64,000 nt of DNA from an uncultured Clostridia bacterium (lineage in GTDB: Bacteria; Bacillota; Clostridia; Oscillospirales; Oscillospiraceae). The stretch is taken from NCBI GenBank assembly GCA_946628965.1, contig CAMOXI010000004.1, positions 2,639-66,638 on the forward strand. The letters run 5' to 3'. Shown piece by piece: positions 38,111-52,975 of the stretch; position 1 is the first letter of the stretch; the number at the start of each line of letters is the position of its first letter. A program made the translations under genes and the position numbers. The notes under the pieces are model-generated. The model saw only the letters and a program-made list of their open reading frames with translations, was not told the origin of the DNA and did not search any database.

Positions 38111-38289
38111 GGCGCATTCCTCCCCGTCTCTTGTTCTCCCCGGCGCCAAAGCGCGGGGAAACTTGTCATTTTATATATTATATATCCAATTCCGCCCTTC
38201 TGGCAAGAGAAAGACTGCGCCCGCGGCACTTGCAGAATCGAACGGAACAGAGTAAGATAAGGAAAAACAATATTGACAAGGAGCATGAC

Positions 38290-39609
38290 ATGAAGCTGCA
38301 GCTGCATACCACCTACGGCGGCGGAAACTGGGACGAACAGTTTACGCAGACCGTTCTGTTTGTCCCCGGCGAGACGGAAAACCGCGTCGTCAACCTCTAC
38401 CCCGAGATCGCGTTCCAGACGCTGGAGGGCTTCGGCGGCGCCATCACCGATTCGGCCGCCTATATCTATTCTTTGATGAATGCGCCCCAGAAGCGGAAGC
38501 TGATGGAGACCTACTTCTCCCCCGAGCGCATGAACTATCAGATGGTCCGCATCCCCATCGACAGCTGCGATTTCTCCGTGGAGCAGTATGAGGCCTGGAC
38601 AGAGAGCGGCGCGCTGGACTTTTCGCGGGTGGAGAAGTACATTCTCCCCATGCTGCGGGACGCCGAGGCCGCTGCCGGGCGGAAGCTCCCGCTGCTGCTG
38701 GCGCCCTGGTCCCCTCCCGCCCACATGAAGACGAACGGACAGCGCCATCAGGGCGGCAAGCTCCGGGAGGAGTGCCGGGCGGGCTACGCCGAGTATCTCT
38801 GCCGATATATCGAGGAGTATCAGAAGCGTGGCTTTCTCGTCCGGGCCCTGAGCCTCCAGAACGAGCCGAAGGCCGTGCAGACCTGGGACTCCTGCGTCTA
38901 CACCGCCGCGGAGGAGAAGGCCTTCCTGCGCGATTATCTCCGGCCCGCGCTGGAAAAGCATGGGCTCACGGGGCTGGAGATCTATCTCTGGGACCACAAC
39001 AAGGAGCGTGTCTACGAATGGATGCGGGATATTATCGACGATACGACCGATCCCATGGTCACCGGCGCCGCCTTCCACTGGTACAGCGGCGACCATTTTG
39101 ATGCCCTGGATCTCTGCCGGCAGCGCTTCCCGGATAAGAAGCTGATCCTCTCCGAGAGCTGCATCGAGTTTTCCAAGTTTGACGCCGATGATCACTTTGG
39201 CGCAGCCTCGCTCTTCGCCCACGAGATGCTGGGCGATCTGAACCATGGCATCTGCTTCTTCGGCGACTGGAACCTGCTCCTCGACGAGGAGGGCGGCCCC
39301 AACTATGTGGGCAACTACTGCCTTGCTCCCTTCCTTTTTGACACGAAGAAAAAGCAGCTGCAGCCCCAGCTTCTGCAGCAGTATATGGAGCATTTCTCCC
39401 GCACGCTGACGCCCGGCTCCGTCCGCATCGGCATGAGCCGCTATGCCGAGGGCGTGGAAGTCACGGCCTGGAAGCGGCCGGACGGAAGCCTCGCCCTGGT
39501 GCTGCTCAACAAGGGCGAAAAGGAAGCGCCCGTAGTCGTCCGTCTGAACGATCAGGAGGCGGCCCTGCTGCTCATGCCCCGCTCCATCTCCAGCGCGGTG
39601 ATCGAGTGA
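38290..39609 (+). CDS. Glycoside hydrolase family 30 (glucosylceramidase-like)
   Basis: ATG 38290. Contains EGFGGAITDSAA, acid/base context LSLQNEP, nucleophile context LILSESC, and a C-terminal beta-sandwich. Confidence 0.85.
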   Translation: MKLQLHTTYGGGNWDEQFTQTVLFVPGETENRVVNLYPEIAFQTLEGFGGAITDSAAYIYSLMNAPQKRKLMETYFSPERMNYQMVRIPIDSCDFSVEQYEAWTESGALDFSRVEKYILPMLRDAEAAAGRKLPLLLAPWSPPAHMKTNGQRHQGGKLREECRAGYAEYLCRYIEEYQKRGFLVRALSLQNEPKAVQTWDSCVYTAAEEKAFLRDYLRPALEKHGLTGLEIYLWDHNKERVYEWMRDIIDDTTDPMVTGAAFHWYSGDHFDALDLCRQRFPDKKLILSESCIEFSKFDADDHFGAASLFAHEMLGDLNHGICFFGDWNLLLDEEGGPNYVGNYCLAPFLFDTKKKQLQPQLLQQYMEHFSRTLTPGSVRIGMSRYAEGVEVTAWKRPDGSLALVLLNKGEKEAPVVVRLNDQEAALLLMPRSISSAVIE

Positions 39610-39672: not shown

Positions 39673-40533
39673 TCAGCCTTTCACCGCGCCGCTGGTCATG
39701 CCGGCGATGATCTGCTCCTGGAAGAGCACGTAGCCGATGATGGACGGGACGATGGAGATCACGATGGCCGCGTACATGGACACGTAGTCGGTGGAGAACT
39801 GGTTGGTGAAGTAGCGGATACCGACCTGGATGGTGCGCAGCTTCTCGGAGGAGACGATGAGGTTTGCGAAGATGAATTCGTTCCAGCAGGTGAGGAACTG
39901 GAAGGTGGCCGCGGTGACGATGCCGGTGCGGCTCAGCGGCAGGATGATGTGGAAGAAGCGCCCGTAGAAGCCGCAGCCGTCGATGTAGGCCGCCTCCTCC
40001 AGCTCCATGGGGATGGAGTCCATCAGCCCGCGGATCAGGAAGGTGGACATGGGGATGCCGATGGCGCAGTAGAGCAGGATCATGCCGCCATAGGTGTTGT
40101 AGAGGCCCAGCTTGTTGATGATGACGAAGTAGGGCACCATCAGGGCGCTCAGCGGCACCAGAATGCCGGCGGTGAAGAGCGTGTAGATGCTCTCACGCCC
40201 GCGGAAGCGGAAGCGGGAGATACAGTAGGCGCCCATGCTGGCGATGATCACGTTCACAAGCGTTGCCACCAGACCCACGATGACGGAGTTGAGCAGCATG
40301 CGGCCCAGACCCGCCACGGACAGGGCGTTGGTGTAGTTCTGCCACTGGGGGACGGCGGGCAGCGCAAAGGGCGACTTGGTCAGGAACTCAAAGTTTGTCT
40401 TCAGCGAGGAGGACAGCAGCCACAACAGCGGGAACAGGGTGTAGACCGCGAAGAAGATGATCAGGATCCAGCGCAGGATCGCGAGCACCAGCTCTTTTCC
40501 GCGAAGAGGAGGACGGAGACGGGTTTCACTCAT
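39673..40533 (-). CDS. Carbohydrate ABC transporter permease (MalG/CUT1 type)
   Basis: 286 aa, 6 TM. EAA loop LEEAAYIDGCGFYGRFFHIILP. ATGA overlap with the upstream permease gene. Confidence 0.9.
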   Translation of the reverse strand: MSETRLRPPLRGKELVLAILRWILIIFFAVYTLFPLLWLLSSSLKTNFEFLTKSPFALPAVPQWQNYTNALSVAGLGRMLLNSVIVGLVATLVNVIIASMGAYCISRFRFRGRESIYTLFTAGILVPLSALMVPYFVIINKLGLYNTYGGMILLYCAIGIPMSTFLIRGLMDSIPMELEEAAYIDGCGFYGRFFHIILPLSRTGIVTAATFQFLTCWNEFIFANLIVSSEKLRTIQVGIRYFTNQFSTDYVSMYAAIVISIVPSIIGYVLFQEQIIAGMTSGAVKG

Positions 40534-41438
40534 TTCACAGCCCTCCTTGCCTTCTTGGGCTTGACCGTTTCGCCGCGGCCGTTGAAAAGCGTGCGGATCG
40601 TGATGATGAAGATCACGCCCACGATGATCAGGATGACGGCCGTAGCGCTGGCAAGGCCGTAGCTCTCGCTCTGCAGGCGCTCGTACATGTACAGCACCAT
40701 CGTCGAGGTGCGGTGGTTCGGGCCGCCGTTTGTGAGCATGTAGACCTGCTCGAACTGCCGCAGACCCATGACGCTGGCCAGCGTCACGCAGGTCAGCAGC
40801 GAGGTCTTCTTTATCAGCGGGATCGTGATGTAGATCGCCTGCTGGAAGTCCGTCGCGCCGTCGATGGTCGCGGCCTCATAGTACGAAGTGTCGATCGTGG
40901 TGATGTCCGCCATCATGATGACCATGTAATAGCCCACATAGAAGACCCAGTAGATCAGCACCGCCGGGAAGGCCGTGCCGCTGTTGCCGAGCCAGTCGGT
41001 GGTGAGACTGCCGAGACCGATGGCGCTCAGCAGGCCGTTGAGCATGCCGTGTTCGGCGTTGTAGATCGCGCGCCACAGTGTAGCCAGCGCGATGCCGGAA
41101 ATGACCTGGGGGAAGAAGTACACTGTGCGGAAGAACTTCCAGCCCTTCGGCTTGCGGGAGAGGATGATTGCCATGACCATCGCGAGCGGCACCTGGATGA
41201 AGCCCGCCACCAGCGCCCAGATGATGTTATTCTTCAGGGAGCGCTGGAAGGTGGAGTTTTTCAGGAGCTTCACGAAGTTTTCAAGGCCCACGACCTGGGG
41301 CGCGGAGATGCCGTTCCATTTCAGGCAGCTGACCACAAGAACGTAGAGGATGGGAATGATGAAAAAGATCACCATGACCGCGATCGCAGGGGCCATGAAG
41401 GCCGCCAGCGCTCTTCTGTCAGATGATGTGGGTTTCAA
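40530..41438 (-). CDS. Carbohydrate ABC transporter permease (MalF/CUT1 type)
   Basis: Start set at TTG 41438, 6 nt after GAAGGAGG. EAA loop YYEAATIDGATDFQQAIYITIP. Confidence 0.88.
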   Translation of the reverse strand: MKPTSSDRRALAAFMAPAIAVMVIFFIIPILYVLVVSCLKWNGISAPQVVGLENFVKLLKNSTFQRSLKNNIIWALVAGFIQVPLAMVMAIILSRKPKGWKFFRTVYFFPQVISGIALATLWRAIYNAEHGMLNGLLSAIGLGSLTTDWLGNSGTAFPAVLIYWVFYVGYYMVIMMADITTIDTSYYEAATIDGATDFQQAIYITIPLIKKTSLLTCVTLASVMGLRQFEQVYMLTNGGPNHRTSTMVLYMYERLQSESYGLASATAVILIIVGVIFIITIRTLFNGRGETVKPKKARRAVK

Positions 41439-41631
41439 AGGACCGCCTCCTTCTAAAATCACCTGCAAAACGTCTGCTTTGCAAGCGAGGACTCGCGCTT
41501 ATCGCACGCGGCGGTGCGTGACGCGCCGCATCTGGTCGGCGAGAGGCCTCACAGTGTTCGGCTCAGGGAGTTTTTGCCGGAACGAAGCTCGCCAAAACGA
41601 TGGCAGCTCCCTTCGGGAGTGCTTTGTAATG

Positions 41632-41664
41632 GTACAGGCTGCGGCTCAGCACCGCAGCCTGTAC
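41632..41664 (-). promoter_or_regulatory. Intercistronic stem-loop after the binding-protein gene
   Basis: 13-bp perfect stem GTACAGGCTGCGG / CCGCAGCCTGTAC with a 7-nt loop. Lies 38 nt after the stop at 41702, inside a 263-nt gap before the permease start. Confidence 0.6.
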
Positions 41665-41701
41665 AGCGGATTCAACTAACTACGGTTCGGCTCGGTCAGG
41701 C

Positions 41702-42973
41702 TCAGGCCATGTCAATGGCTTCCTGGAGCTGATCGACGAAGCCCTGGGCGTCAACGTCGCCGTTGATGAGAGCGGCCAGAGCGGAGGGGAACTCGGTGGA
41801 GAAGGCGGTGGGGAAGGCGCCGTTCACATGCAGGATGGTGAAGGCGGCGTTGTTGGCAACCTCAGTGACCTTCTGGGAGATGGGACGGGTCTCCTCGGCG
41901 GGCGTATACTTGACGAAGAACATGGCGCCGGAGGACAGAGCCAGCTCGGAGACGTGCTCAGGATCGGTGAGGTACTGGAGGAACTTCACAACGGCAGCTT
42001 CCTTCGCAGGATCGTCCTGCTTGCCGGCAGCCAGGAAGCCCTGGACGGTGGTCACGAGACCGCCTTCGCCAAGGCCGCCCTCGTACACGGGGTTGGTGGC
42101 GACTTCGACGGAGTCAGCCAGGAGCTTGCCGTCAACAGCGTTGTCTTCTTTGTAGAAGTTGGCGATCCACCAGGGGCCGTTGAGGTAGATGGCGGTGTCG
42201 CGGGCGATGAAGTGGCCGTTCACGTCGGCAGCGCCGGCGGAGACAGCGCCGTCAAAGGTGTAGTCATACATCTTCTTGAGAACCTCGGCAGCTTCCACGA
42301 AAGCGGGATTCTCCAGGCCGTCGGCATAGACGTCCTTGCCGCCGATGGCCTCAACGATCAGGGAGTACCAAAGCATGGAGGACCAGCCGTTCTCACCGGC
42401 CATCTGGCCCATAACGTTGTAGCCGGCGGCCTTCACGTCCTCGGCCATCTGGAAGAACTCCTCATAGGTGGCGGGGAAGTGATCCCAGCCGGCAGCCTCG
42501 AAGATGTCCTTGTTGTAGATCGGGGTAAAGACAGCGGCCTCGAAGGGCAGGATGCTGACCTTGCCGTCAACGCTCCAGGCGTCGAAAGCACCGTCGGCAA
42601 AATCCTCGCCCCAGCCCTCTTCCAGGTACGGGGTCAGATCCATGAACTTGCCGGACTCGGCATAGGCCTTGATATCGAAGGTAGTGTCAAGGATGCAGAT
42701 GTCGGGGGTGTTGCCGGTGGTGACGGTGGTGCGGATCTTGTCACGGTAGGCCTGGTAGTCGGTCTGCTCTTCGACGACGACCTTGATGGAGCCGGCGTTC
42801 TCTTCGTTGAACTTCTCGATCAACTCAGACATGTAAGCGGCCTTGGAGTCGGTGCCGACCCAGATGCTGGGGAAGTTGATGACGATCTCACCGTCTGCAT
42901 GGGCAGGCTGGGCGATCGGGGCCAGGGTGAAGACCATGACCAGTGCAAGCAGCAGTGCAAATACTTTTTTCAT
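41702..42973 (-). CDS. Carbohydrate ABC transporter substrate-binding protein (candidate sulfoquinovose / SQ-glycerol binding protein)
   Basis: 423 aa with signal peptide MKKVFALLLALVMVFTLAPIAQPAHA and a family-1 sugar-binding fold by resemblance. The substrate is inferred only from the locus. Confidence 0.85.
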   Translation of the reverse strand: MKKVFALLLALVMVFTLAPIAQPAHADGEIVINFPSIWVGTDSKAAYMSELIEKFNEENAGSIKVVVEEQTDYQAYRDKIRTTVTTGNTPDICILDTTFDIKAYAESGKFMDLTPYLEEGWGEDFADGAFDAWSVDGKVSILPFEAAVFTPIYNKDIFEAAGWDHFPATYEEFFQMAEDVKAAGYNVMGQMAGENGWSSMLWYSLIVEAIGGKDVYADGLENPAFVEAAEVLKKMYDYTFDGAVSAGAADVNGHFIARDTAIYLNGPWWIANFYKEDNAVDGKLLADSVEVATNPVYEGGLGEGGLVTTVQGFLAAGKQDDPAKEAAVVKFLQYLTDPEHVSELALSSGAMFFVKYTPAEETRPISQKVTEVANNAAFTILHVNGAFPTAFSTEFPSALAALINGDVDAQGFVDQLQEAIDMA

Positions 42974-42986
42974 ACACGTTCTCCTT

Positions 42987-43007
42987 TTGATTAACTTCTT
43001 TAAGTAA
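42987..43007. promoter_or_regulatory. AT-rich 21-bp imperfect palindrome in the leader of the ABC operon (candidate ROK operator)
   Basis: TTGATTAAC-TTC-TTTAAGTAA. Shares TTGATTAA-N4-TTTAA with the minus-strand reading of 47369..47389. Lies between the promoter and the SD of the binding-protein gene. Confidence 0.4.
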
Positions 43008-43044
43008 TTCGCCGAAAAAAAGAACCCCGGCGGTCTGTATCTTC

Positions 43045-43073
43045 ATTATAGAGATACTTTCATTTTTTGTAAA
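43045..43073 (-). promoter_or_regulatory. Consensus sigma-A promoter of the sugar ABC operon
   Basis: Minus strand: TTTACA, 17 nt, TATAAT. Confidence 0.6.
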
Positions 43074-43130
43074 GCTTTTTGGCCTGCACGAATTCGTAGA
43101 TTCTCTCCCTATGTTTTTGTTGATATTCAC

Positions 43131-43168
43131 GAAAAAGAAAAACGAGAGCCCTTTTCAAGGCTCCCGTT
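43131..43168 (-). terminator. Rho-independent terminator after the GH31 gene
   Basis: Minus strand: AACGGGAGCC-TTGAAAAG-GGCTCTCGTT (one G-U pair) followed by TTTCTTTTTC. Lies 36 nt after the stop at 43204. Confidence 0.7.
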
Positions 43169-43203
43169 TTCATGCATTTTGACGCCGTTGATGGAGATAA
43201 CTG

Positions 43204-45195
43204 TCAGTTTTTGAGGCTCTCGAAGAGTGCGGCATCGTCCGTGCCGCGGCGATAGAAGACCGGGGGCTGCCCGATGGGGGCCGCGACCTCCGTCCAGCCG
43301 CCCGGATACTTTTCGCCGCTCCAGAGATGGATCCACTCCCCTGCCGGGAGCCACACACGCCGCCTTTCGGCGCCCGGTTCCACCACCGGGGCCACCAGCA
43401 GATCATCCCCCAGCAGATAGCTGTAGAGGCGGTGATCCCAGGCCTCCGCCGCCTCCGGCTGCAGGAAGAACAGCGGGCGCATCACCGGCAGGCCCGAGGC
43501 CGCGTTTTCTTCCACGCAGCGTTTCAGATAAGGCAGCAGCGCGTTGTGAAGTGATGTCATGTGCGCGGCAAAGGCCAGCAGCTCCGGCGTGTCGTAGAGC
43601 TGGACATTGGAGTCGGGGCGGTTGCCCTCATGGGTGCGCATGACCGGCGTGAAGGCCGCAAACTCCAGCCAGCGCTGCATCAGTTCCTCGTCCCGGTGCA
43701 GGTGGAAGAGCGTAGTGTAGCCGCCGATGTCGCAGGTGTGCAGGCCGTAGCCGCTGAGGCCGGCGCTGAGCGCCGCGGTGATCACCGAGGGCAGCCCGTC
43801 GTCCTCCGACCAGTCCACACACTGATCGCCCGCCCAGAGGAGCGTGGAATACCGCTGGCTCCCGGCCGCGCCGGAGCGCATGAAGAACACGCAGTCCCCC
43901 AGTTTGCCGGCCTCCTCCACGGCCTCGCGGTTGCACCTGGCCCAGAGCATGGGCCAGGCGTTGTGCATCTGCAGGCCGCTGCCGCCGCGGCAGACCGCGT
44001 CCGCCGGGAGATACTCGCCGAAGTCCGCCATCCAGCCCTTGAAGCCCAGGCCGATCAGATTTGTCTTGATGACTTCCTTGTACCAGGTGAAGGCCGCGGG
44101 ATCGGTCAGATCCACGACGCCGCAGTTGAATTCACCGAAGTCGAAGAGATAATCCTCCCCGGCGGCGTTTTTGACGAAATAGCCCTTTTCAGCCGCCTCC
44201 CGGAACAGGACGCCGCCCTCCACCAGGTAGGGGTTGATGTAGCCCATCCAGGCCGTGCCGGTATCCTTTTGAATGATCTCATCCAGGCCGGGATACATCT
44301 CCCGGTTCCAGCGCCAGTCCCACTGCAGGCGTTTGCCGAAGGAGGTGACGCGCTTGCCCTCCCAGTCCTGGATCCAGACGGCGGAGACGTCCAGCCCCGC
44401 ATCCAGGCAGCGCTTCTGCAGCGCGGTCACGCGCTCGGTGCCGCCCTGTACGCCGAGCCAGAGGCCCCGCATCGCCCAGTCGGGCAGGGCGGGCTGACGG
44501 CCCAGCAGGGCCGTAAGCTTTTCCAGCAGGGCGGGAAAGCTCTCCGCAGCGGCAAAGCTCAGGTGCACGCGGGTCGTCCAGAGGCCCAGCTCATGGAAGT
44601 CTCTCTCCCGCAGATCCAGCTCCGCATATTCATAATTGTGCAGATGGGCGAAATACAGCCGTGAGGACAGCAGGGTCGGCTGGGGGAAGAAGGTGGTGTG
44701 GTAATCGCCGCCGCTCCCGTCCAGCGCGTCGGCCAGGCGGGTGACCTCGGTCAGCTTGTTGCGGCCCACGCCCTGCTCCCGCGTCCAGATGGGCCAGAGC
44801 CTGCCGCGCAGGTCCAGCGCCGAAAACTGCTCGCCCCCGCCGCAGAGGTGCTCGCCCTCCTCGGCGTACAGGCGCAGCCAGAGCCGGTTCCAGTCCGGGT
44901 CATCACATTCGCCGGTGATGTCCAGGCGGCCCTCCCGCTCCGCAAAGCGCAGGCGGTATTCGCCTGTGAGGACGGGGCTTCCCAGCCGCAGCACGCCGTC
45001 CGCAAAGCCGATCGGGCGCAGCGCCGTGCGCTCGTCCACCCTGTCGCGGATGTCAAAATTGCCGCAGAACATGTGAATATTCTCTTTTCCCCGGCCGAGA
45101 AACAGCGCGGGGGCATCCGGGGTATCCTGGATCAGCAGTTTCCCGTCCAGCCGAAGCGCAAAGCCCTCGCCGGGGCGGATCTCCAATTCGTACAT
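43204..45195 (-). CDS. GH31 glycosidase with sulfoquinovosidase-type active-site pattern (YihQ-like)
   Basis: 663 aa. IQDWEGKRVTSFGKRLQWDWRW (Arg289-x-x-Trp292); nucleophile context GWMADFGE (Asp391); acid/base WAGDQ (Asp457); DIGGYT (Tyr493). The spacings match those I recall for E. coli YihQ R301/W304/D405/D472/Y508. Confidence 0.8.
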   Translation of the reverse strand: MYELEIRPGEGFALRLDGKLLIQDTPDAPALFLGRGKENIHMFCGNFDIRDRVDERTALRPIGFADGVLRLGSPVLTGEYRLRFAEREGRLDITGECDDPDWNRLWLRLYAEEGEHLCGGGEQFSALDLRGRLWPIWTREQGVGRNKLTEVTRLADALDGSGGDYHTTFFPQPTLLSSRLYFAHLHNYEYAELDLRERDFHELGLWTTRVHLSFAAAESFPALLEKLTALLGRQPALPDWAMRGLWLGVQGGTERVTALQKRCLDAGLDVSAVWIQDWEGKRVTSFGKRLQWDWRWNREMYPGLDEIIQKDTGTAWMGYINPYLVEGGVLFREAAEKGYFVKNAAGEDYLFDFGEFNCGVVDLTDPAAFTWYKEVIKTNLIGLGFKGWMADFGEYLPADAVCRGGSGLQMHNAWPMLWARCNREAVEEAGKLGDCVFFMRSGAAGSQRYSTLLWAGDQCVDWSEDDGLPSVITAALSAGLSGYGLHTCDIGGYTTLFHLHRDEELMQRWLEFAAFTPVMRTHEGNRPDSNVQLYDTPELLAFAAHMTSLHNALLPYLKRCVEENAASGLPVMRPLFFLQPEAAEAWDHRLYSYLLGDDLLVAPVVEPGAERRRVWLPAGEWIHLWSGEKYPGGWTEVAAPIGQPPVFYRRGTDDAALFESLKN

Positions 45196-45229: not shown

Positions 45230-45847
45230 TTATTCATTGTACCAGGCGTCGCCCTCGTTCTGGTCGGCCGTAAGAGGGCGGAACACCGGCTCGATGCTCA
45301 GGCTCATCAGCAGGCAGAGAACGCCGGGCAGCAGCGGCAGCAGCGGCGGGATCAGCCAGACGATCAGGCCGAAGAGCGCAAGCTCCGCCGCAAGCAGCAG
45401 TGTGACGCCGAAATGCCGCAGGGCGAGATAGGCCGAGAATTTCAGCGTCCCACCCAGGCTGTTCTGAAAACGGGAGAGGAAGGCGAATAGCCAGGGAAAC
45501 AGCAGCAGCGGCAGCAAAAGCAGCAGCCGCACCAGATAGTAGAGCGCGCTCCCCCGCTCGATTCCCATGCTCCCCAACGCATACGCATTGGCAAGGCCGA
45601 TCAGGACATAGAGCACCAGCAGCAGCCACAGCAGGGTCCCCTGCCGGAAGTTTTCGCGGAAGGCACGAAAAAAGCTCTTCGTCAGGCTGCCCCGCTCATG
45701 CCGGATGCACTTGACCGTCACATAGTAGAGCGCCGTGCTGGCAGCGCCGACGGTGACAAGCGGCAGCGAACAGAGAAGCCACAGCACGCCCGCCCAGATC
45801 ACATCCGACAGCGCGGCCACCACCGCGTGGAAGCGGGACTGCTTCAT
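45230..45847 (-). CDS. YesL/DUF624 family membrane protein
   Basis: The sequence VIWAGVLWLLCSLPLVTVGAASTALYYVTVKCIRHERGSLTKSFFRAFRENFRQG is the family hallmark. Shares 1 nt (TGATG) with the upstream isomerase stop. Confidence 0.8.
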   Translation of the reverse strand: MKQSRFHAVVAALSDVIWAGVLWLLCSLPLVTVGAASTALYYVTVKCIRHERGSLTKSFFRAFRENFRQGTLLWLLLVLYVLIGLANAYALGSMGIERGSALYYLVRLLLLLPLLLFPWLFAFLSRFQNSLGGTLKFSAYLALRHFGVTLLLAAELALFGLIVWLIPPLLPLLPGVLCLLMSLSIEPVFRPLTADQNEGDAWYNE

Positions 45848-47184
45848 CAGTAGCGGTACACGGGGAAGCCGAACATCTCGGCCAGGGCGCTCAGGGTCTC
45901 GCCGTGGCGGCCCTTGAGCACCACGAAGTGGGGTTCAAATCCGTCACGCACGCTCTGCTCCACGATGGTGCGGCTGTTGTTGTCGGTACGCACCACGATG
46001 GAGGTGCCGATGAACTGCTTGGGCTTGTCCAGCGCCTCACCCTCGGTGATGAAGAAGCGGAAGCTGCCGTCCGGCTCGCGGCCGATGCGGAAGACTGTGG
46101 CCTCCGGGAAGGACTCGCAGCCGAAGTCCATGGCCGGGCCGATCTTGCGGTTGGGATGCACGCCCACCACCGCGCCGGTGTCGTGCCGGGCCAGGGAGCA
46201 GGCGGCCGCGCCGCAGTGCCAGAAAGTGATGGTGTTCTCCCCCTCGTCGAGAGAGACCGGGTCACCGAAGAAGACCGGCTCACCGGAGAGCTGCATGCCG
46301 ATCCACATGGACAATGCGCCGTAGATATCGGCCTCGCAGGCGGCGGCCACGCCCTCGTCGTTCAAAAGACTCAGCACCGTGCAGACGGGGGTGCCGAAGG
46401 CAGTGAAGAAATCGGGCCAGCAGCGGGAGGCCAGGGCGCCGATGTTGTGGCCGCGGACATAGTCGGTATAGGCCTTGTAGAGTCTCGCGTGGTCCAGGCG
46501 GTTTTTCTCCGGGGTATGCTCCAGGCCGCAGGTAGCCGCGTCGGTGCGCTGCAGATACTCGGCGCACTCCTCGTCGGTATAGCCCTTGGCCATGTCGATG
46601 AGCTCCCGGGCCTCGATGGCCTCCAGCTCCACGCCGAAGCTGTTCATGATCTCGCTGTCCAGCGCGCGGCCAAAGCCGAAGCCCTGGGGCGTGTGGCCCA
46701 CGGCGGACATACGCAGGGAGCGCATCGCCTTTTTGACCCGGGCGGCCTCCACCGCGGCCTTCGCCGCGCGGATGACAGGCTCCTCCTCCGGGGCGCCGAA
46801 GGTGTAGGAAAAGGCGCGGTCGTCAAAGGCGCGCAGCGTGTTTGCCGCCGAGTAGGCGCCGGTCAGGGAGTTGAGGCGCAGGCGGCCGCCGTCGATCACC
46901 GGCTCACGCAGGGTCCAGAGCAGCACCGGGCAGTCAAAGCGGCGCAGCACCTCGGACATGTAGGCGGCATTGGCGAAGGTCAGGTTCTGGAAGACGATCA
47001 GATCCGGCTGCAGCGGGGCCAGATAGGCGCGCAGATCGTCCAGATTCAGCAGCATCTTTTCAGGCACGACAAAGTGCTCATCCAGGCCGCGGAGCAGCCG
47101 GATGCTGCGCTCAAACTGATCCTGCGCGCTCTCCAGATGGAAGGTGGGCACCCCCACCGGAATATAGACAGGGCAAAAGCTCAT
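45847..47184 (-). CDS. L-fucose/L-arabinose-isomerase-family sugar isomerase (candidate sulfoquinovose isomerase)
   Basis: 445 aa. N-terminal Rossmann-like domain (VYIPVGVPTF..LIVFQNLTFANAAY..PVLLWTL) and a C-terminal FucI-type barrel by resemblance. The role is inferred from context. Confidence 0.75.
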   Translation of the reverse strand: MSFCPVYIPVGVPTFHLESAQDQFERSIRLLRGLDEHFVVPEKMLLNLDDLRAYLAPLQPDLIVFQNLTFANAAYMSEVLRRFDCPVLLWTLREPVIDGGRLRLNSLTGAYSAANTLRAFDDRAFSYTFGAPEEEPVIRAAKAAVEAARVKKAMRSLRMSAVGHTPQGFGFGRALDSEIMNSFGVELEAIEARELIDMAKGYTDEECAEYLQRTDAATCGLEHTPEKNRLDHARLYKAYTDYVRGHNIGALASRCWPDFFTAFGTPVCTVLSLLNDEGVAAACEADIYGALSMWIGMQLSGEPVFFGDPVSLDEGENTITFWHCGAAACSLARHDTGAVVGVHPNRKIGPAMDFGCESFPEATVFRIGREPDGSFRFFITEGEALDKPKQFIGTSIVVRTDNNSRTIVEQSVRDGFEPHFVVLKGRHGETLSALAEMFGFPVYRY

Positions 47185-47226
47185 AAAGAAATCCTCCCGT
47201 AAAATAATTAGTTAACGCTATGAAGC

Positions 47227-47255
47227 ATCATAGACCGACTTGTCCCTTCTGTCAA
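47227..47255 (-). promoter_or_regulatory. Candidate sigma-A promoter of the isomerase-YesL-GH31 operon
   Basis: Minus strand: TTGACA, 17 nt, TATGAT. The -10 lies inside the palindrome CTATGA-TGCT-TCATAG. Confidence 0.5.
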
Positions 47256-47334
47256 GGCGTTGTCGCAGAAAAGCTCCCGTCCGGGGCAGATCCTTCAAAA
47301 ACCTGTATAATTGTCCTTTTCTGCGATCTTGCTG

Positions 47335-47363
47335 TTGACAAAGCGGCCCGCAAGGGGTACACT
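47335..47363 (+). promoter_or_regulatory. Candidate sigma-A promoter of the transketolase operon
   Basis: TTGACA, 17 nt, TACACT. About 45 nt upstream of the TTG start at 47409. Confidence 0.5.
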
Positions 47364-47368
47364 TCTTT

Positions 47369-47389
47369 TTGGTTAAATCTTTTAATCAA
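47369..47389. promoter_or_regulatory. AT-rich 21-bp palindrome at the predicted transcription start (candidate ROK operator)
   Basis: TTGGTTAAA-TCT-TTTAATCAA, with 8 of 9 arm positions complementary. Lies immediately downstream of the -10. Confidence 0.45.
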
Positions 47390-47408
47390 TCATAAGGGGG
47401 AACCAGAA

Positions 47409-48236
47409 TTGAGCTACAATCTGAAGGAAGTCAGCAAGGATATCCGCTGCGATATTCTTCGCTGCATCGGGCATCTCGGCGTCGGCCACATCGGCGGCTG
47501 CCTTTCGGTGGCGGAGTTGCTGGCTGTGCTGTACTTTGAGGCGATGAACATCGATCCCGCCAATCCCAAGATGGAAGGCCGCGACCGCTTCGTCTGCTCC
47601 AAGGGTCACGCGGGCCCCGCAGTCTACGCTGCGCTGGCCAACCGCGGCTACTTTGACAAGAAGGAGCTGCTCACCCTGAACCAGGGCGGCACCAATCTCC
47701 CCTCCCACTGCGATATGAACCGCACCATCGGCATCGACATGACCACCGGCTCCCTGGGCCAGGGCTTCTCCTGCGCCGTGGGCGTTGCGCTGGGCAGCAA
47801 ACTGGAAGAGGACGGTGCGACCGTCTACACCCTGATCGGCGACGGCGAGAGCCAGGAGGGCCAGATCTGGGAGGCCGCCATGTTCGCCGCCGCGAAGAAG
47901 CTGGATAACCTGATCGCCTTTACCGACTACAACAAGTTCCAGATCGACGACTGCGTCGCCAAGGTCAACGACATCGCGCCGCTGGCGGAGAAGTGGGCTG
48001 CCTTCGGCTGGAACGTGATCGAGGTGGAGGACGGCAACGACGTGGAGCAGGTCTCCGAGGCCGTGAAGCACGCCAAGCTCGGCCGCGGCAGCGAGAAGCC
48101 CACCATGGTCATTCTCAACACCGTCAAGGGCTGCGGCGTCCAGTGGATCGTGGATCTGGGCGCGGGCAATCACAACTGCAAGATCACCGAGGAGCAGGCC
48201 GAGGAGGCCATCCGCGTGATCAGAGAGGAGAACTGA
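47409..48236 (+). CDS. Transketolase, N-terminal (TPP-binding) subunit
   Basis: TTG 47409, 7 nt after AAGGGGGA. Contains HIGGCLSVAELLAVLYF, SKGHAGPAVYA, and the TPP motif GDGESQEGQIWEAAMFAAAKKLDNLIAFTDYN. Confidence 0.9.
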   Translation: MSYNLKEVSKDIRCDILRCIGHLGVGHIGGCLSVAELLAVLYFEAMNIDPANPKMEGRDRFVCSKGHAGPAVYAALANRGYFDKKELLTLNQGGTNLPSHCDMNRTIGIDMTTGSLGQGFSCAVGVALGSKLEEDGATVYTLIGDGESQEGQIWEAAMFAAAKKLDNLIAFTDYNKFQIDDCVAKVNDIAPLAEKWAAFGWNVIEVEDGNDVEQVSEAVKHAKLGRGSEKPTMVILNTVKGCGVQWIVDLGAGNHNCKITEEQAEEAIRVIREEN

Positions 48237-48239
48237 GCC

Positions 48240-49163
48240 ATGGAAATGAGACAAGTTTATGCGAGCTGCCTGGCCGAACTGATGGAGAAGGACCGGCACG
48301 TCTGCGTCCTGGACGCGGACCTGGCCAAAGCCAGCGGCACCCGCGGCCTGTACGAGCGCTTCCCGAAGCAGATGTTTGACTGCGGCGTGGCCGAGCAGGA
48401 CATGGCCTCCATCGCCGCCGGTCTCTCCAGCTACGGCTTCAAGCCCTGGATCGAGAGCTTCACGCCCTTCGCCTCCCGCCGCATCTGCGACCAGATCGCC
48501 ATCTCCATCTCCTATGCCAAGCGCAACGTGAAGATCGTCGGAACCGACCCCGGCATCTCCGCCGAACTCAACGGCGGCACCCACATGAGCATGGAGGACA
48601 TCGGCGTTCTCCGTTCCATCCCCGGCGTCGTGATCTTCGAGCCGGTGGACGCGGTGCAGCTGCGCGCCGCCATGCCCGTGCTGAACGAGTACGACGGGCC
48701 TGTGTACGTGCGCCTGTTCCGCAAGGAGCTGCCGGACGTGTTTGAGGAAGGCTACCAGTTCGATCTCTTCAAGGCCGACCTGCTGAAGGAAGGCAGGGAT
48801 CTGACGATCTTCGTCAGCGGCTTCCAGACCAAGCATGTGCTGGACGTGGTGCCCGAACTGAAAGAGGCCGGCATCGACGCCGAGGTCATCAACATCCACA
48901 CCATCAAGCCCATCGACCGGGAGAGCGTCATTGCCTCCGCCCGCAAGACCGGCGCCGTGCTGACCGTGGAGAACCATAACGTCATCGGCGGTCTGCACTC
49001 TGCCGTGCTCGAGGCGCTGGCCGAGGAGAAGATCCCCGCCGTCGCCGTCGGCGTGCCCGACCGCTTCGGCGAAGTGGGCAAGATGCCCTACCTGGAGAAG
49101 GTGCTCGGCATGACGAAGGAAGACATCGTCGCCGCCGCGAAAAAGGCTGTCAGCCTTAAATAA
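48240..49163 (+). CDS. Transketolase, C-terminal (pyrimidine-binding) subunit
   Basis: 307 aa. Contains FDCGVAEQDMASIAAGLS, GGTHMSMEDIGVLRSIPG, and a C-terminal domain. Starts 4 nt after the N-subunit stop. Confidence 0.9.
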   Translation: MEMRQVYASCLAELMEKDRHVCVLDADLAKASGTRGLYERFPKQMFDCGVAEQDMASIAAGLSSYGFKPWIESFTPFASRRICDQIAISISYAKRNVKIVGTDPGISAELNGGTHMSMEDIGVLRSIPGVVIFEPVDAVQLRAAMPVLNEYDGPVYVRLFRKELPDVFEEGYQFDLFKADLLKEGRDLTIFVSGFQTKHVLDVVPELKEAGIDAEVINIHTIKPIDRESVIASARKTGAVLTVENHNVIGGLHSAVLEALAEEKIPAVAVGVPDRFGEVGKMPYLEKVLGMTKEDIVAAAKKAVSLK

Positions 49164-49238: not shown

Positions 49239-49715
49239 ATGAAAATTGCTATCGGAAGCGACAAGTCCGGTTTTTCCGCCAAGGAAGCCATCAAGGCCTA
49301 TCTGCTCGAATGCGGCGCCGATTTTGAAGATCTCGGCACCACCGACCTCAACGCCGTCCACCCCTACTACCAGGTGGCATCTGAAGTCGCCCCCCTGGTG
49401 CAGAGCGGCAAGTTTGACCGCGCCATCCTGATCTGCGGCACCGGCGCCGGCATGTCCGTGGTCGCCAACAAGTACAAGGGCGTTTACGCCGTCGCCTGCG
49501 AGGGCGTGTACTCCGCCAAGATGGCCCGCGCCATCAACAACGCCAACATCCTCTGCATGGGCGGCTGGATCGTCGGCCCCGAGATGGCCGTCGAGATGGT
49601 CAAGACCTTCCTCGCCACCGACTGGTGCCAGGATCTGGAGGATTGGCGCGCCGCGAACATGCACAAGTTTGCCCGCCAGGTCTCCGCGATTGAGGACAGC
49701 ATCTATGATCGCTGA
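49239..49715 (+). CDS. RpiB/LacA/LacB-family sugar(-phosphate) isomerase (candidate sulfoerythrose isomerase)
   Basis: 158 aa. MKIAIGSDKSGF and the catalytic-Cys segment ILICGTGAGMSVVANK. Confidence 0.88.
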   Translation: MKIAIGSDKSGFSAKEAIKAYLLECGADFEDLGTTDLNAVHPYYQVASEVAPLVQSGKFDRAILICGTGAGMSVVANKYKGVYAVACEGVYSAKMARAINNANILCMGGWIVGPEMAVEMVKTFLATDWCQDLEDWRAANMHKFARQVSAIEDSIYDR

Positions 49716-50802
49716 GTTTGTATACAGCCAGCCGGTCAAGATCTGGTTCGGCGAGGGGCAGTTTGCCCGCCTGGGCGAGATCCTGAATGAGCTCGGAAGT
49801 CAGTCCTGCGTCATCGCCTGCGGCCGCCATTTTGCGCCCGAGGCCGAAGCGCTCATGGGCAGAGAGCCCCGTATCAAGGCCGTTTTTGGCGCTGTGGAGC
49901 AGAACCCGCAGCTTTCCGGCATTGAGGAGACCGTCCGGCTCGCCCGCGCGCACGTGGCCGACACCGTGATCGGCATCGGCGGCGGCAGCTCCATCGACAC
50001 GGCGAAGTTTGCCGCGGCCATCGCCCGCGGTGAGGGCGAGGCGGAGGAGTACTTCCGCGGCACCCTTCCCTTCCCCGCCGAACGGCTCACCATCGTGGCC
50101 GTGCCCACCACCGCCGGCACCGGCAGTGAAGTGACCCAGGTCTCCGTCGTGAGCTTCGGCAAAGAGAAGAAGACCATCAACAACCCGGTCTTCATGCCCC
50201 GGGCTGCCATCGTCGACCCGCTGATGAGCGCCGGCGTCCCGCCCCGCACCACGATGAACACCGGGCTTGACGCCATGGCCCACGCGCTGGAGGGCTACTG
50301 GAGCCGCAACCACCAGCCGATCCCCGATCTGATGGCGATCGAGGCGGTGCGTCTCATCCTGAATAACCTGGAGCGCGCCTGGCGCGACGGCTCGGACCGG
50401 GAGGCCCGCGCCGCCATGGCCTACGCCTCTCTCCTGGGCGGGCTCAGCTTCGCCCTGCCCAAGACCGCAGCGAGCCACGCCTGCTCCTATCCCCTGTCCG
50501 AGGATTACCATCTGCCCCATGGCGAGGCCTGCGCCTTCACGCTGGACAGCCTGGTGCGCATCAACGCCGACGAGCGGCTGGAGCATTTGGCGCAGGCCGT
50601 CGGCCTGAAGGACACCGAAGAGCTGGCCGAGCGCATCGCCGCCCTCAAGAAGATGGCCGGCCTGCGCACCCGTCTGAGCGAGCTGGGCGAGGTGGATCTG
50701 GACAAGCTCTGCCGCGACTGCGCGGCCCATCCGCTGATGAAGAATAACCCCGTCCAACTGGACGAGGCCAGACTCCGGGAGATGTTTGAAGCGCTGCAAT
50801 GA
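49705..50802 (+). CDS. Iron-containing (group III) alcohol dehydrogenase (candidate sulfoacetaldehyde reductase)
   Basis: ATG 49705 overlaps the RpiB gene by 11 nt. NAD motif GIGGGSSIDTAKF. Metal-site histidines in DAMAHALE and HACSYPL..HLPHGEA. Confidence 0.88.
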   Translation: MIAEFVYSQPVKIWFGEGQFARLGEILNELGSQSCVIACGRHFAPEAEALMGREPRIKAVFGAVEQNPQLSGIEETVRLARAHVADTVIGIGGGSSIDTAKFAAAIARGEGEAEEYFRGTLPFPAERLTIVAVPTTAGTGSEVTQVSVVSFGKEKKTINNPVFMPRAAIVDPLMSAGVPPRTTMNTGLDAMAHALEGYWSRNHQPIPDLMAIEAVRLILNNLERAWRDGSDREARAAMAYASLLGGLSFALPKTAASHACSYPLSEDYHLPHGEACAFTLDSLVRINADERLEHLAQAVGLKDTEELAERIAALKKMAGLRTRLSELGEVDLDKLCRDCAAHPLMKNNPVQLDEARLREMFEALQ

Positions 50803-51713
50803 GGGACGATCTCAAATACACGCTGATGGTCATCGGCATGGTCCTCTCCTGGTCGGTCTACTACGCGGTCAGCAAGATCGTCGTCGACGCCACGGGTTCT
50901 CCCCTGCTCGCGGGCTTTCTGCTGCGTTCGGCGGCGCTGGTGTTTCTCACGCTGCAGCTGCTGCTGGATCAAAACTTCTCCCGCCTCTTTCACCAGGGCA
51001 AGGCGGTGCTGATCCTGGTCGTCATTGGCGTCTTCGGCTTTCTGCTGGATCTCTTTGCAAACCTCGGCTACGCGGGCGGCTCCCTGAGCACCGGCACGGC
51101 CCTTCTGAAGACCGACGTGCTGATGGTGAACCTGGTCACTGTGATCCTCTACCACAAGAAGCTATACATCTCCGACTGGCTGGGCACGCTGGTCATGCTG
51201 GCCGGCGTCCTGCTGGTGCTGGGGGTGGACTTCGGCGGGATGCAGTTTCATCCCACGGATCTCTTCTTCCTCCTCAGTGCCCTCTGTGTGACCGCCAACG
51301 CCTTCATCATCAAGACCGCACAGGAGAAGTACCATGAGGACGCGGACATGATCTCCTACTACAACAACGCCGTCGTGCTGTTGCTCTTCGGCGGTTCCGC
51401 CGCCGCGGCGGGGCAGATCGGCGCCGTCGCCATCGAGCGCAGCCCCTCGTTCTGGCTGCTGGTCGTGCTGGGCGGCCTTGCCCAGACCGGGATCTACTTC
51501 TTCTATTACCGCAATCTCCGCCACTTTGAAGTGTGGCTGGTGAAGCTCTACCTGCTGCTGATGCCGGTGCTGAGCTGCTTCATCGGGGTGTGGTTTCTCG
51601 GGGAAACGCTCACCGCCACAAAACTGCTCGGCATCCTGGTGGTGCTCACTGGCGCCGCCATCATTCTCCTGCGCGGCCGCATCAACCGCGCGGGCCGTGT
51701 CCAACGAAGCTGA
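50799..51713 (+). CDS. DMT-superfamily (EamA-like) transporter (candidate isethionate exporter)
   Basis: 304 aa, about 10 TM, two EamA-like halves. ATGA overlap with the dehydrogenase gene. Confidence 0.82.
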   Translation: MRDDLKYTLMVIGMVLSWSVYYAVSKIVVDATGSPLLAGFLLRSAALVFLTLQLLLDQNFSRLFHQGKAVLILVVIGVFGFLLDLFANLGYAGGSLSTGTALLKTDVLMVNLVTVILYHKKLYISDWLGTLVMLAGVLLVLGVDFGGMQFHPTDLFFLLSALCVTANAFIIKTAQEKYHEDADMISYYNNAVVLLLFGGSAAAAGQIGAVAIERSPSFWLLVVLGGLAQTGIYFFYYRNLRHFEVWLVKLYLLLMPVLSCFIGVWFLGETLTATKLLGILVVLTGAAIILLRGRINRAGRVQRS

Positions 51714-51751: not shown

Positions 51752-52975
51752 ATGCCCTCTGCGGGTGACAATATGATGGGCGTCAAGCGCAATAACCGCG
51801 CCGCCGCGCTGCGCATCCTGCACGAGGAGGGGAGCGTCTCCCGCAAGCGCCTGGCCGAGACGCTGGGCCTGACCCCGGCGGCGATCACCAAGATCGTCGG
51901 CGAGATGCTGAACGAAAAGCTCCTGAACGAGGGCAGCGCCGTTCTGAGCAGCAGTGCCGGACGGCGGGAGATCCTGCTGGAGCTCAACCCCCGCTACGGC
52001 GCGGCGCTGGGCGTGCTGATCAATCTGCGGCAGGCCATCGTGTCCGCCGTGTGGCTGGACGGCACGGTGATCTTCTCGGAGGAGTTCACGCTGCAGCCGA
52101 AGGCCCCGGCGGAGCCCACGGCCGGCATGCTGGCCGGGCGGCTGCTCGCCCTGATGGAGGAGCATCAGCTTTCCCGTGAGCGCGTGATCGGTCTCGGCAT
52201 CGCGGTGCGCGGCATCTGCTCGGCGGACGGGCGCACCGTCTGCGACAGCTTCGGCGCTCTGGCGGAGGAGAATTTCCCGCTATGCCAGCGCTTTGAGGAG
52301 CTGACCGGTTTCCCCGCCGTGATGAGCAACAATGTGCGCGCGCTCTTTGCCGCTCAGATGTATCTCTCCCGCGACCGGGCCGAGGGCGCGCAGTTCTTCC
52401 TGCGCTGTGAGTACGGCATCGGCGCCTCCCTGTCCGTGGATGGGCAGATCTGGAGCGGCGTAACCGAGCAGTGCGCCGAGATCGGGCATATCCCCGTGAT
52501 CCCCCGGGGCGGCAAGCCCTGCTCCTGCGGCAAGAGCGGCTGTCTGGAGACCATCGCCTCCCCTGCCGCCATCGTCGAAGATGCGACAGCCATCCTCTCG
52601 GAGGAGAAAACGCCGGTGCTGTGGAAGCTCCGGCAGGAAAAAGGCGATGCGCCGCTGAACATCTACGACGTGATGAACGCCGCAGCCGGCGGCGACCAGG
52701 GCGCCTCCGCCATCGTGGACCGGGCGGTATCCGCCCTCGGCACGGCGCTCAAATCCGTCATCTATCTGCTGGACCCGGGCAAGATCGTCCTCTACGGCCA
52801 CATGTTCGAAGACCCCTATTACCTGCTGCGGCTCCTGAGCGAGATGCGCGAGGGCGTGGATACGCGCCATGCCGCGGTCATTGAGCGCAGCCGCTACAAT
52901 CTGAAGCTGGAGAACAAGGCGGCAAGCCTGCTGGCCGTGCGGAACTTTTACGAGCGCGGCGGCATCCGCGCCTGA
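51752..52975 (+). CDS. ROK-family transcriptional regulator
   Basis: ATG 51752, 7 nt after AAAGGAGGGG. wHTH RAAALRILHEEGSVSRKRLAETLGLTPAAITKIVGEM. ROK zinc motif CSCGKSGCLET. Confidence 0.85.
   Translation: MPSAGDNMMGVKRNNRAAALRILHEEGSVSRKRLAETLGLTPAAITKIVGEMLNEKLLNEGSAVLSSSAGRREILLELNPRYGAALGVLINLRQAIVSAVWLDGTVIFSEEFTLQPKAPAEPTAGMLAGRLLALMEEHQLSRERVIGLGIAVRGICSADGRTVCDSFGALAEENFPLCQRFEELTGFPAVMSNNVRALFAAQMYLSRDRAEGAQFFLRCEYGIGASLSVDGQIWSGVTEQCAEIGHIPVIPRGGKPCSCGKSGCLETIASPAAIVEDATAILSEEKTPVLWKLRQEKGDAPLNIYDVMNAAAGGDQGASAIVDRAVSALGTALKSVIYLLDPGKIVLYGHMFEDPYYLLRLLSEMREGVDTRHAAVIERSRYNLKLENKAASLLAVRNFYERGGIRA

Follow-up and report, generated by a model that had tools for sequence, protein, structure and literature searches.

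A predicted YihQ-type sulfoquinovosidase within a sulfo-transketolase locus of a rumen Oscillospiraceae genome

Glycoside hydrolases of family 31 (GH31) raise a recurrent question when encountered in a genome, i.e., whether the enzyme called an "alpha-glucosidase" indeed acts on neutral sugars or on a sulfonated one. Such is the question raised by a minus-strand gene at positions 43204..45195 of the 64,000-nucleotide stretch of DNA analysed here, hereafter the window, which belongs to contig CAMOXI010000004.1 of an uncultured Clostridia bacterium of the family Oscillospiraceae (GCA_946628965.1). From a pattern of sulfonate-recognition residues, an earlier note on this DNA had proposed a sulfoquinovosidase (SQase) rather than a generic alpha-glucosidase, and residue placement, fold and sulfo-transketolase gene context all argue for this proposal. 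The open reading frame (ORF) is thus predicted, with a probability of roughly 0.93, to encode a functional, cytoplasmic and retaining GH31 SQase of the YihQ family.

The gene and its sulfonate-recognition residues

Across the interval 43204..45195, only one long family-supported ORF is present, a minus-strand one specifying 663 amino acids. Its start codon is the ATG at 45195, with AGGAGG as ribosome-binding site ahead of it, and its N-terminus, read directly from the sequence, lacks a signal peptide, from which a cytoplasmic enzyme is deduced. Motif positions retrieved by script are KRLQWDW at 288-294, GWMADFGE at 387-394, WAGDQ at 454-458 and DIGGYT at 489-494. As such, all the motifs and the five numbered residues that had been claimed, namely R289, W292, D391, D457 and Y493, were recovered in the translation with the spacings given for them (102, 66 and 36 residues), and the span then delimited, 43717-44331, is bounded exactly by the codons of Y493 and R289. 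The E. coli YihQ residues given for comparison (R301, W304, Y508, D405 and D472, with spacings of 104, 67 and 36) likewise match the numbering derived from the MG1655 gene, the yihQ and yicI sequences being taken from the annotated MG1655 record.

From end to end, the SQase shares 51% identity with E. coli YihQ (BLASTP, 664 columns, 8 gaps). When searched with phmmer against all chains of the PDB, the best match is YihQ (5aed, E = 6.7e-219), followed by 8r56, 6pnr and 5ohs/5ohy, and the first GH31 enzyme outside the SQase group (4b9y) comes at E = 1.5e-53. As judged from sequence comparison, the resemblance with YihQ is a matter of homology and not of chance.

Residue by residue, the MAFFT alignment equates Q276, R289, W292, D391, D457, Y493 and H522 of the SQase with Q288, R301, W304, D405, D472, Y508 and H537 of YihQ, respectively. 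The roles of these residues are cited here from two later papers restating them (PMC12780224; bioRxiv 10.64898/2026.02.11.705467). The Q/E-RWY motif comprises Q288 (E270), R301/R283, W304/W286 and Y508/Y491 in the E. coli and Agrobacterium tumefaciens enzymes (PMC12780224), while D405 is the nucleophile, D472 the acid/base and H537 a substrate-binding residue, with a further Q262/K245 pairing (bioRxiv 10.64898/2026.02.11.705467). In the window, all codons being on the minus strand, the Gln of this motif corresponds to Q276 in QDWEG (44368..44370), the sulfonate-binding Arg to R289 (44329..44331), the Trp to W292 (44320..44322) and the sulfonate-binding Tyr to Y493 in DIGGYT (43717..43719); the catalytic nucleophile corresponds to D391 in WMADFGE (44023..44025) and the general acid/base to D457 in WAGDQ (43825..43827). 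In a HMMER alignment, E270, R283, W286 and Y491 of the A. tumefaciens SQase (AtSQase) fall on Q276, R289, W292 and Y493, and sequence alignment places the Arg, Trp and Tyr together with both catalytic Asp on matching positions of AtSQase and of the E. rectale and B. megaterium SQases. In addition, Q250 occupies the position of YihQ Q262, through a 12-residue offset in an ungapped stretch of alignment, and is invariant in an alignment of 27 sequences; since both Q250 and Q276 are present, the enzyme of the window is of the E. coli Q/Q type. Over a broader set, the equivalents of D391 and D457 are invariant (64/64 homologues), a Tyr is found at the Y493 position in 63 of 64, and an Arg at the R289 position in each of the 42 Oscillospiraceae-type homologues.

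The earlier note further stated that ordinary GH31 enzymes lack the Arg-x-x-Trp pair. At the Gln, Arg, Trp, Asp, Asp and Tyr positions, the E. coli alpha-xylosidase YicI exhibits a gap, Ala312, Trp315, Asp416, Asp482 and Phe515, respectively (MAFFT). The statement thus holds for the Arg, which YicI replaces by Ala312, and fails for the Trp, which YicI keeps as W315. As this Trp also occurs in ordinary GH31 enzymes, W292 does not discriminate, and the distinction lies with the Arg, the Tyr and the insertion bearing the Gln. All three are present and correctly placed in the SQase, which argues against an ordinary GH31 enzyme for neutral sugars, be it an alpha-glucosidase or an alpha-xylosidase.

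Family profiles, fold and a paralogue lacking the Arg and Tyr of the motif

Respective to family profiles, the SQase scores 877.9 bits against NF007746, an NCBIfam equivalog with the PRK10426 name and a cut-off of 553. An activity on neutral sugars could find some support in the legacy description of this very profile, still "alpha-glucosidase," and in Pfam matches limited to generic GH31 domains (PF01055 and PF21365), but the profiles of neutral-sugar enzymes remain far under their cut-offs, namely 197.7 versus 606 for the xylosidase profile NF007940 and 120.1 versus 800 for the MalA profile NF040948.

An AlphaFold2 model built from an alignment of 27 natural homologues reached a mean predicted local distance difference test (pLDDT) score of 92 and a predicted template modelling (pTM) score of 0.92. 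Together with the Pfam matches, it reveals the GH31 architecture, i.e., an N-terminal beta-sandwich, a (beta/alpha)8 barrel and C-terminal beta domains. In a Foldseek search of the PDB, ranks 1-23 were all GH31 SQases, with template modelling (TM) scores of 0.94-0.98 and root-mean-square deviations (rmsd) of 1.3-1.8 Å: YihQ (5aed, 5aeg and 5oht among its structures) at TM 0.97-0.98 and rmsd 1.3-1.6 Å, the B. megaterium enzyme BmSQase (8r56) at TM 0.97, the E. rectale SQase (6pnr) at TM 0.96 and AtSQase at TM 0.94-0.96. The next GH31 enzymes, i.e., YicI, Agd31B and a dextranase, matched at TM ~0.73, rmsd 8.5-10.7 Å and 21-23% identity, and this poorer fit also speaks against a neutral-sugar enzyme. 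Close to the structure-guided comparison that had been suggested as a check, the model superposes over its whole chain on SQase crystal structures, Foldseek giving a global view of the fold rather than a residue-level view of the pocket; the sequence alignment puts the Arg, Trp and Tyr on the pocket positions of YihQ and the fold agrees.

The genome of the window, a metagenome-assembled genome (MAG) comprising 134 contigs (2.18 Mb in total) with 74.8% completeness, encodes a second YihQ-like GH31 protein, located on another contig (C63, 7196-9178, plus strand) and sharing 39% identity with the SQase. This paralogue retains the two catalytic Asp as well as the Gln and the Trp, and has a Gln in place of the Arg (GKQVWW) and a Phe in place of the Tyr (DIGGFFS); around it lie genes for an MFS_2 symporter, an esterase and an acyltransferase rather than sulfoglycolysis genes. 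The class to which it belongs, with WNGDQ for WAGDQ and RSHES for RTHEGN, is 36-45% identical to the SQase and occurs in 16 of 80 other genomes of the same genus (17 with that of the window). The same Arg-to-Gln and Tyr-to-Phe replacements are found in all 15 same-genus paralogues sampled, and in three genomes the paralogue lies only 1-3 kb from the true SQase.

The paralogue on C63 nonetheless passes the cut-off of the NCBIfam YihQ equivalog (596.5 versus 553). Since the family hidden Markov model (HMM) accepts a paralogue lacking the Arg and Tyr of the motif, inspection at the level of residues is needed to call SQases in these genomes: residue pattern and context separate the SQase from the RWY-less class, the family HMM does not, and the paralogue on C63 serves as a natural negative control for the motif. 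That this class represents an undescribed GH31 specificity operating alongside sulfoquinovose release, e.g., on a neutral glycolipid head group, seems rather doubtful.

The sulfo-transketolase locus and the proposed reaction sequence

As described from Pfam and NCBIfam scans with refined gene starts, the neighbourhood of the SQase consists of two divergent operons. The minus-strand operon begins with a SqvD/SftI-type sulfoquinovose isomerase of the FucI family (45847..47184, PF02952), whose sole NCBIfam match is NF048012, "sulfoquinovose isomerase" (E = 7.8e-114, 380.8 bits, below the cut-off of 700). Its stop codon is overlapped by the gene of a small membrane protein of the DUF624/MusI family (45230..45847, minus), which is syntenic in relatives. 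Beyond the SQase comes a CUT1-type sugar ATP-binding cassette (ABC) importer (39673..42973, minus), with a binding protein matching Pfam SBP_bac_1/8 (41702-42973) and two BPD_transp_1 permeases (40530-41438 and 39673-40533); syntenic in relatives at 58-92% identity, it would presumably import sulfoquinovosyl glycerol (SQGro) or sulfoquinovose. The plus-strand operon comprises (i) the split transketolase SqwG (47409-48236, with a TTG start at 47409 and a ribosome-binding site) and SqwH (48240-49163), carrying the Transketolase_N, Transket_pyr and Transketolase_C domains (PF00456, PF02779 and PF02780), (ii) a RpiB/LacAB-family isomerase corresponding to the sulfoerythrose isomerase SqwI (49239..49715, PF02502), a role taken from PMC9594981, (iii) an Fe-dependent alcohol dehydrogenase corresponding to SqwF, the sulfoacetaldehyde reductase yielding isethionate (49705..50802, PF00465 and PF25137), with a weak match below cut-off to the SarD sulfoacetaldehyde reductase profile (174 bits), (iv) a syntenic transporter of the EamA/DMT type in the slot of SqwE, presumably exporting isethionate (50799..51713, PF00892), a role drawn from PMC9594981 and PMC13219744, and (v) a ROK-family transcriptional regulator resembling NagC/Mlc (51752..52975).

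In the published sulfo-transketolase scheme (PMC9594981), SqvD forms sulfofructose, from which SqwGH gives sulfoerythrose; SqwI isomerises the latter, a second action of SqwGH gives sulfoacetaldehyde and SqwF reduces it to isethionate. As far as sequence comparison goes, the locus is a complete, gene-for-gene match to this pathway, ending in isethionate. Sulfo-transketolase genes occur on both sides of the SQase, and tblastn with the locus proteins of the window recovered the whole locus with conserved gene order in about 40 species-level Oscillospiraceae MAGs from rumen and gut, hence a genomic linkage to sulfoquinovose catabolism. With all the flanking catabolic genes belonging to that pathway, an enzyme for neutral sugars would be out of place here, even if the binding protein finds its closest counterparts among binders of xylo-oligosaccharide or other neutral sugars.

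Whereas homology, residue placement, fold and gene context are established here, the chemistry of the following scheme is proposed by analogy with homologues characterised through crystallography and kinetics. SQGro, or a related sulfoquinovose glycoside derived from plant sulfolipid, would enter the cell, presumably through the neighbouring ABC importer. Attack of D391 on the anomeric carbon would yield a covalent glycosyl-enzyme intermediate, and D457 would protonate the leaving aglycone before activating a water molecule for the release of sulfoquinovose. Meanwhile, the C6 sulfonate would be clamped by R289, W292 and Y493, and Q276, together with its partner Q250, would contact a sugar hydroxyl. 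Sulfoquinovose would then undergo isomerisation by SqvD and two cleavages by SqwGH, with the isomerisation by SqwI in between, to reach sulfoacetaldehyde, which SqwF would reduce to isethionate for export by the EamA transporter.

Three points weigh against the prediction of an active SQase. Firstly, the YihQ profile accepting the RWY-less paralogue, an HMM score alone is no proof of specificity. Secondly, no SQGro-binding protein (SmoF) figures among the 40 PDB matches of the ABC binding protein at E <= 1e-5, the best of which are binders of neutral oligosaccharides, including xylo-oligosaccharide; given this lack of similarity to the solved SQGro-binding protein, the transported substrate is one we infer. 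Thirdly, the DUF4867/SqvB (SftX) gene, a companion of many such loci, is absent from the window. The sole DUF4867 copy detected in the genome, at 74.8% completeness, lies on a 2.5-kb contig (C103, 359-994, minus) beside a sugar kinase of the FGGY family, with 38-43% identity to most locus-linked SqvB of relatives and 56% to one. In many relatives, DUF4867 lies right after the ROK regulator gene of this locus.

Among the other explanations, that of a YihQ-type enzyme devoted to another sulfonated glycoside than SQGro, such as a sulfofucoside or one with a different C6-sulfonated sugar or aglycone, finds some support in that the conserved triad alone cannot tell the preference for an aglycone or an epimer and that sulfofucose catabolism does exist in bacteria (PMC12421959). 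Still, it appears highly improbable considering that the residues by which YihQ recognises a hydroxyl are conserved as Q276 and Q250 and that the downstream enzymes match those processing sulfoquinovose to isethionate (PMC9594981). The generic alpha-glucosidase or alpha-xylosidase, scarcely credible as well, is rejected because the residues, the scores against family profiles, the ranking of folds and the gene context all speak against it.

Besides the genes assigned to the pathway, two non-coding regions can be delineated, namely the 230-bp gap between the SQase stop and the binding-protein start (42974-43203) and the 224-bp divergent intergenic region between SqvD and SqwG (47185-47408, with SqwG starting at the TTG 47409), both of which probably serve in regulation by the ROK protein. 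Directly beyond the ABC permeases, a GH30 glycoside hydrolase is encoded on the plus strand (38131-39609), for which the syntenic loci of relatives gave no tblastn match and which probably has nothing to do with the sulfosugar genes.

Relatives, published occurrence and comparison with known systems

When one genome of each prokaryotic species was scanned for SQase homologues, 72 loci were obtained. The closest relatives, at 61-76% identity, come from MAGs of rumen and gut origin that bear the label Ruminococcaceae, Oscillospiraceae or Candidatus Limivicinus. Among the 80 other genomes of the same genus, 16 encode an SQase orthologue at 66-76% identity and three a form at 52-54%, the latter retaining the full motif. 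More distant YihQ homologues, at 37-48% identity, were encountered at 23 loci of Thermotogota (e.g., Fervidobacterium islandicum), Spirochaetota and Sphingobacteriales MAGs, where a Gln stands for the sulfonate Arg (K/S-Q-L-x-W) and the Gln, Trp and Tyr are kept, with the exception of one Phe; most of them adjoin homologues of SqwG, SqwH, SqwI or SqwF. These distant proteins also exhibit an insertion of 7-14 residues after DIGGYTT.

In the cow rumen samples analysed in a 2026 ISME J paper (PMC13219744), yihQ richness was high and mostly attributed to Ca. Limivicinus. According to the same work, 35.5% of 313 Ca. Limivicinus genomes encode the sulfo-transketolase pathway; isethionate production, sqwGHI transcription and, in some species, two yihQ copies are reported as well (PMC13219744). 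Since the same biology is reported there, the present finding is covered at every level but one: the enzyme family, the Q/E-RWY signature, the sulfo-transketolase pathway and the occurrence in rumen Ca. Limivicinus are already published, and the individual sequence alone is new. Its value is first one of annotation, in that a gene which pipelines would call "alpha-glucosidase" is correctly renamed sulfoquinovosidase. It would also mark this rumen Oscillospiraceae MAG as a degrader of sulfolipid excreting isethionate, a substrate for sulfide-producing Desulfovibrionaceae; otherwise, little is new.

Of the systems already characterised, E. coli YihQ (5aed, 5aee, 5aeg and 5oht) resembles the SQase of the window by its 51% identity, Q-R-W-Y set, Q262-type partner, pair of catalytic Asp and H537 equivalent. 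The two differ by an N-terminus 12 residues shorter and small indels in the SQase of the window, and by their settings, i.e., a sulfo-Embden-Meyerhof-Parnas pathway (yihS/V/T/U) with major facilitator superfamily transporters in E. coli, but a sulfo-transketolase pathway with an ABC importer in the window. AtSQase (5ohs, 5ohy and 7ofx), at 45-46% identity, shares the Arg, Trp and Tyr at the equivalent positions given above but exhibits the K245/E270 variant of the motif, whereas the window harbours the Q/Q variant like E. coli. The E. rectale (6pnr) and B. megaterium (8r56) enzymes are, like that of the window, GH31 SQases of Firmicutes, at 48-50% identity and TM 0.96-0.97, and KRLQWDW, GWMADFGE and DIGGYT are near-identical in 6pnr; both nevertheless come from organisms using a sulfo-transaldolase pathway leading to C3 sulfonates (PMC9594981), in contrast to the transketolase route to isethionate. 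Finally, the cow rumen loci of Ca. Limivicinus (PMC13219744) depart from that of the window by DUF4867/SftX, which here lies outside the locus, and correspond to it by YihQ, SftI/SqvD, SqwGH, SqwI, SqwF, the exporter and the ABC transporter. In light of these comparisons, the SQase of the window is an ordinary YihQ-type enzyme within a locus type already published.

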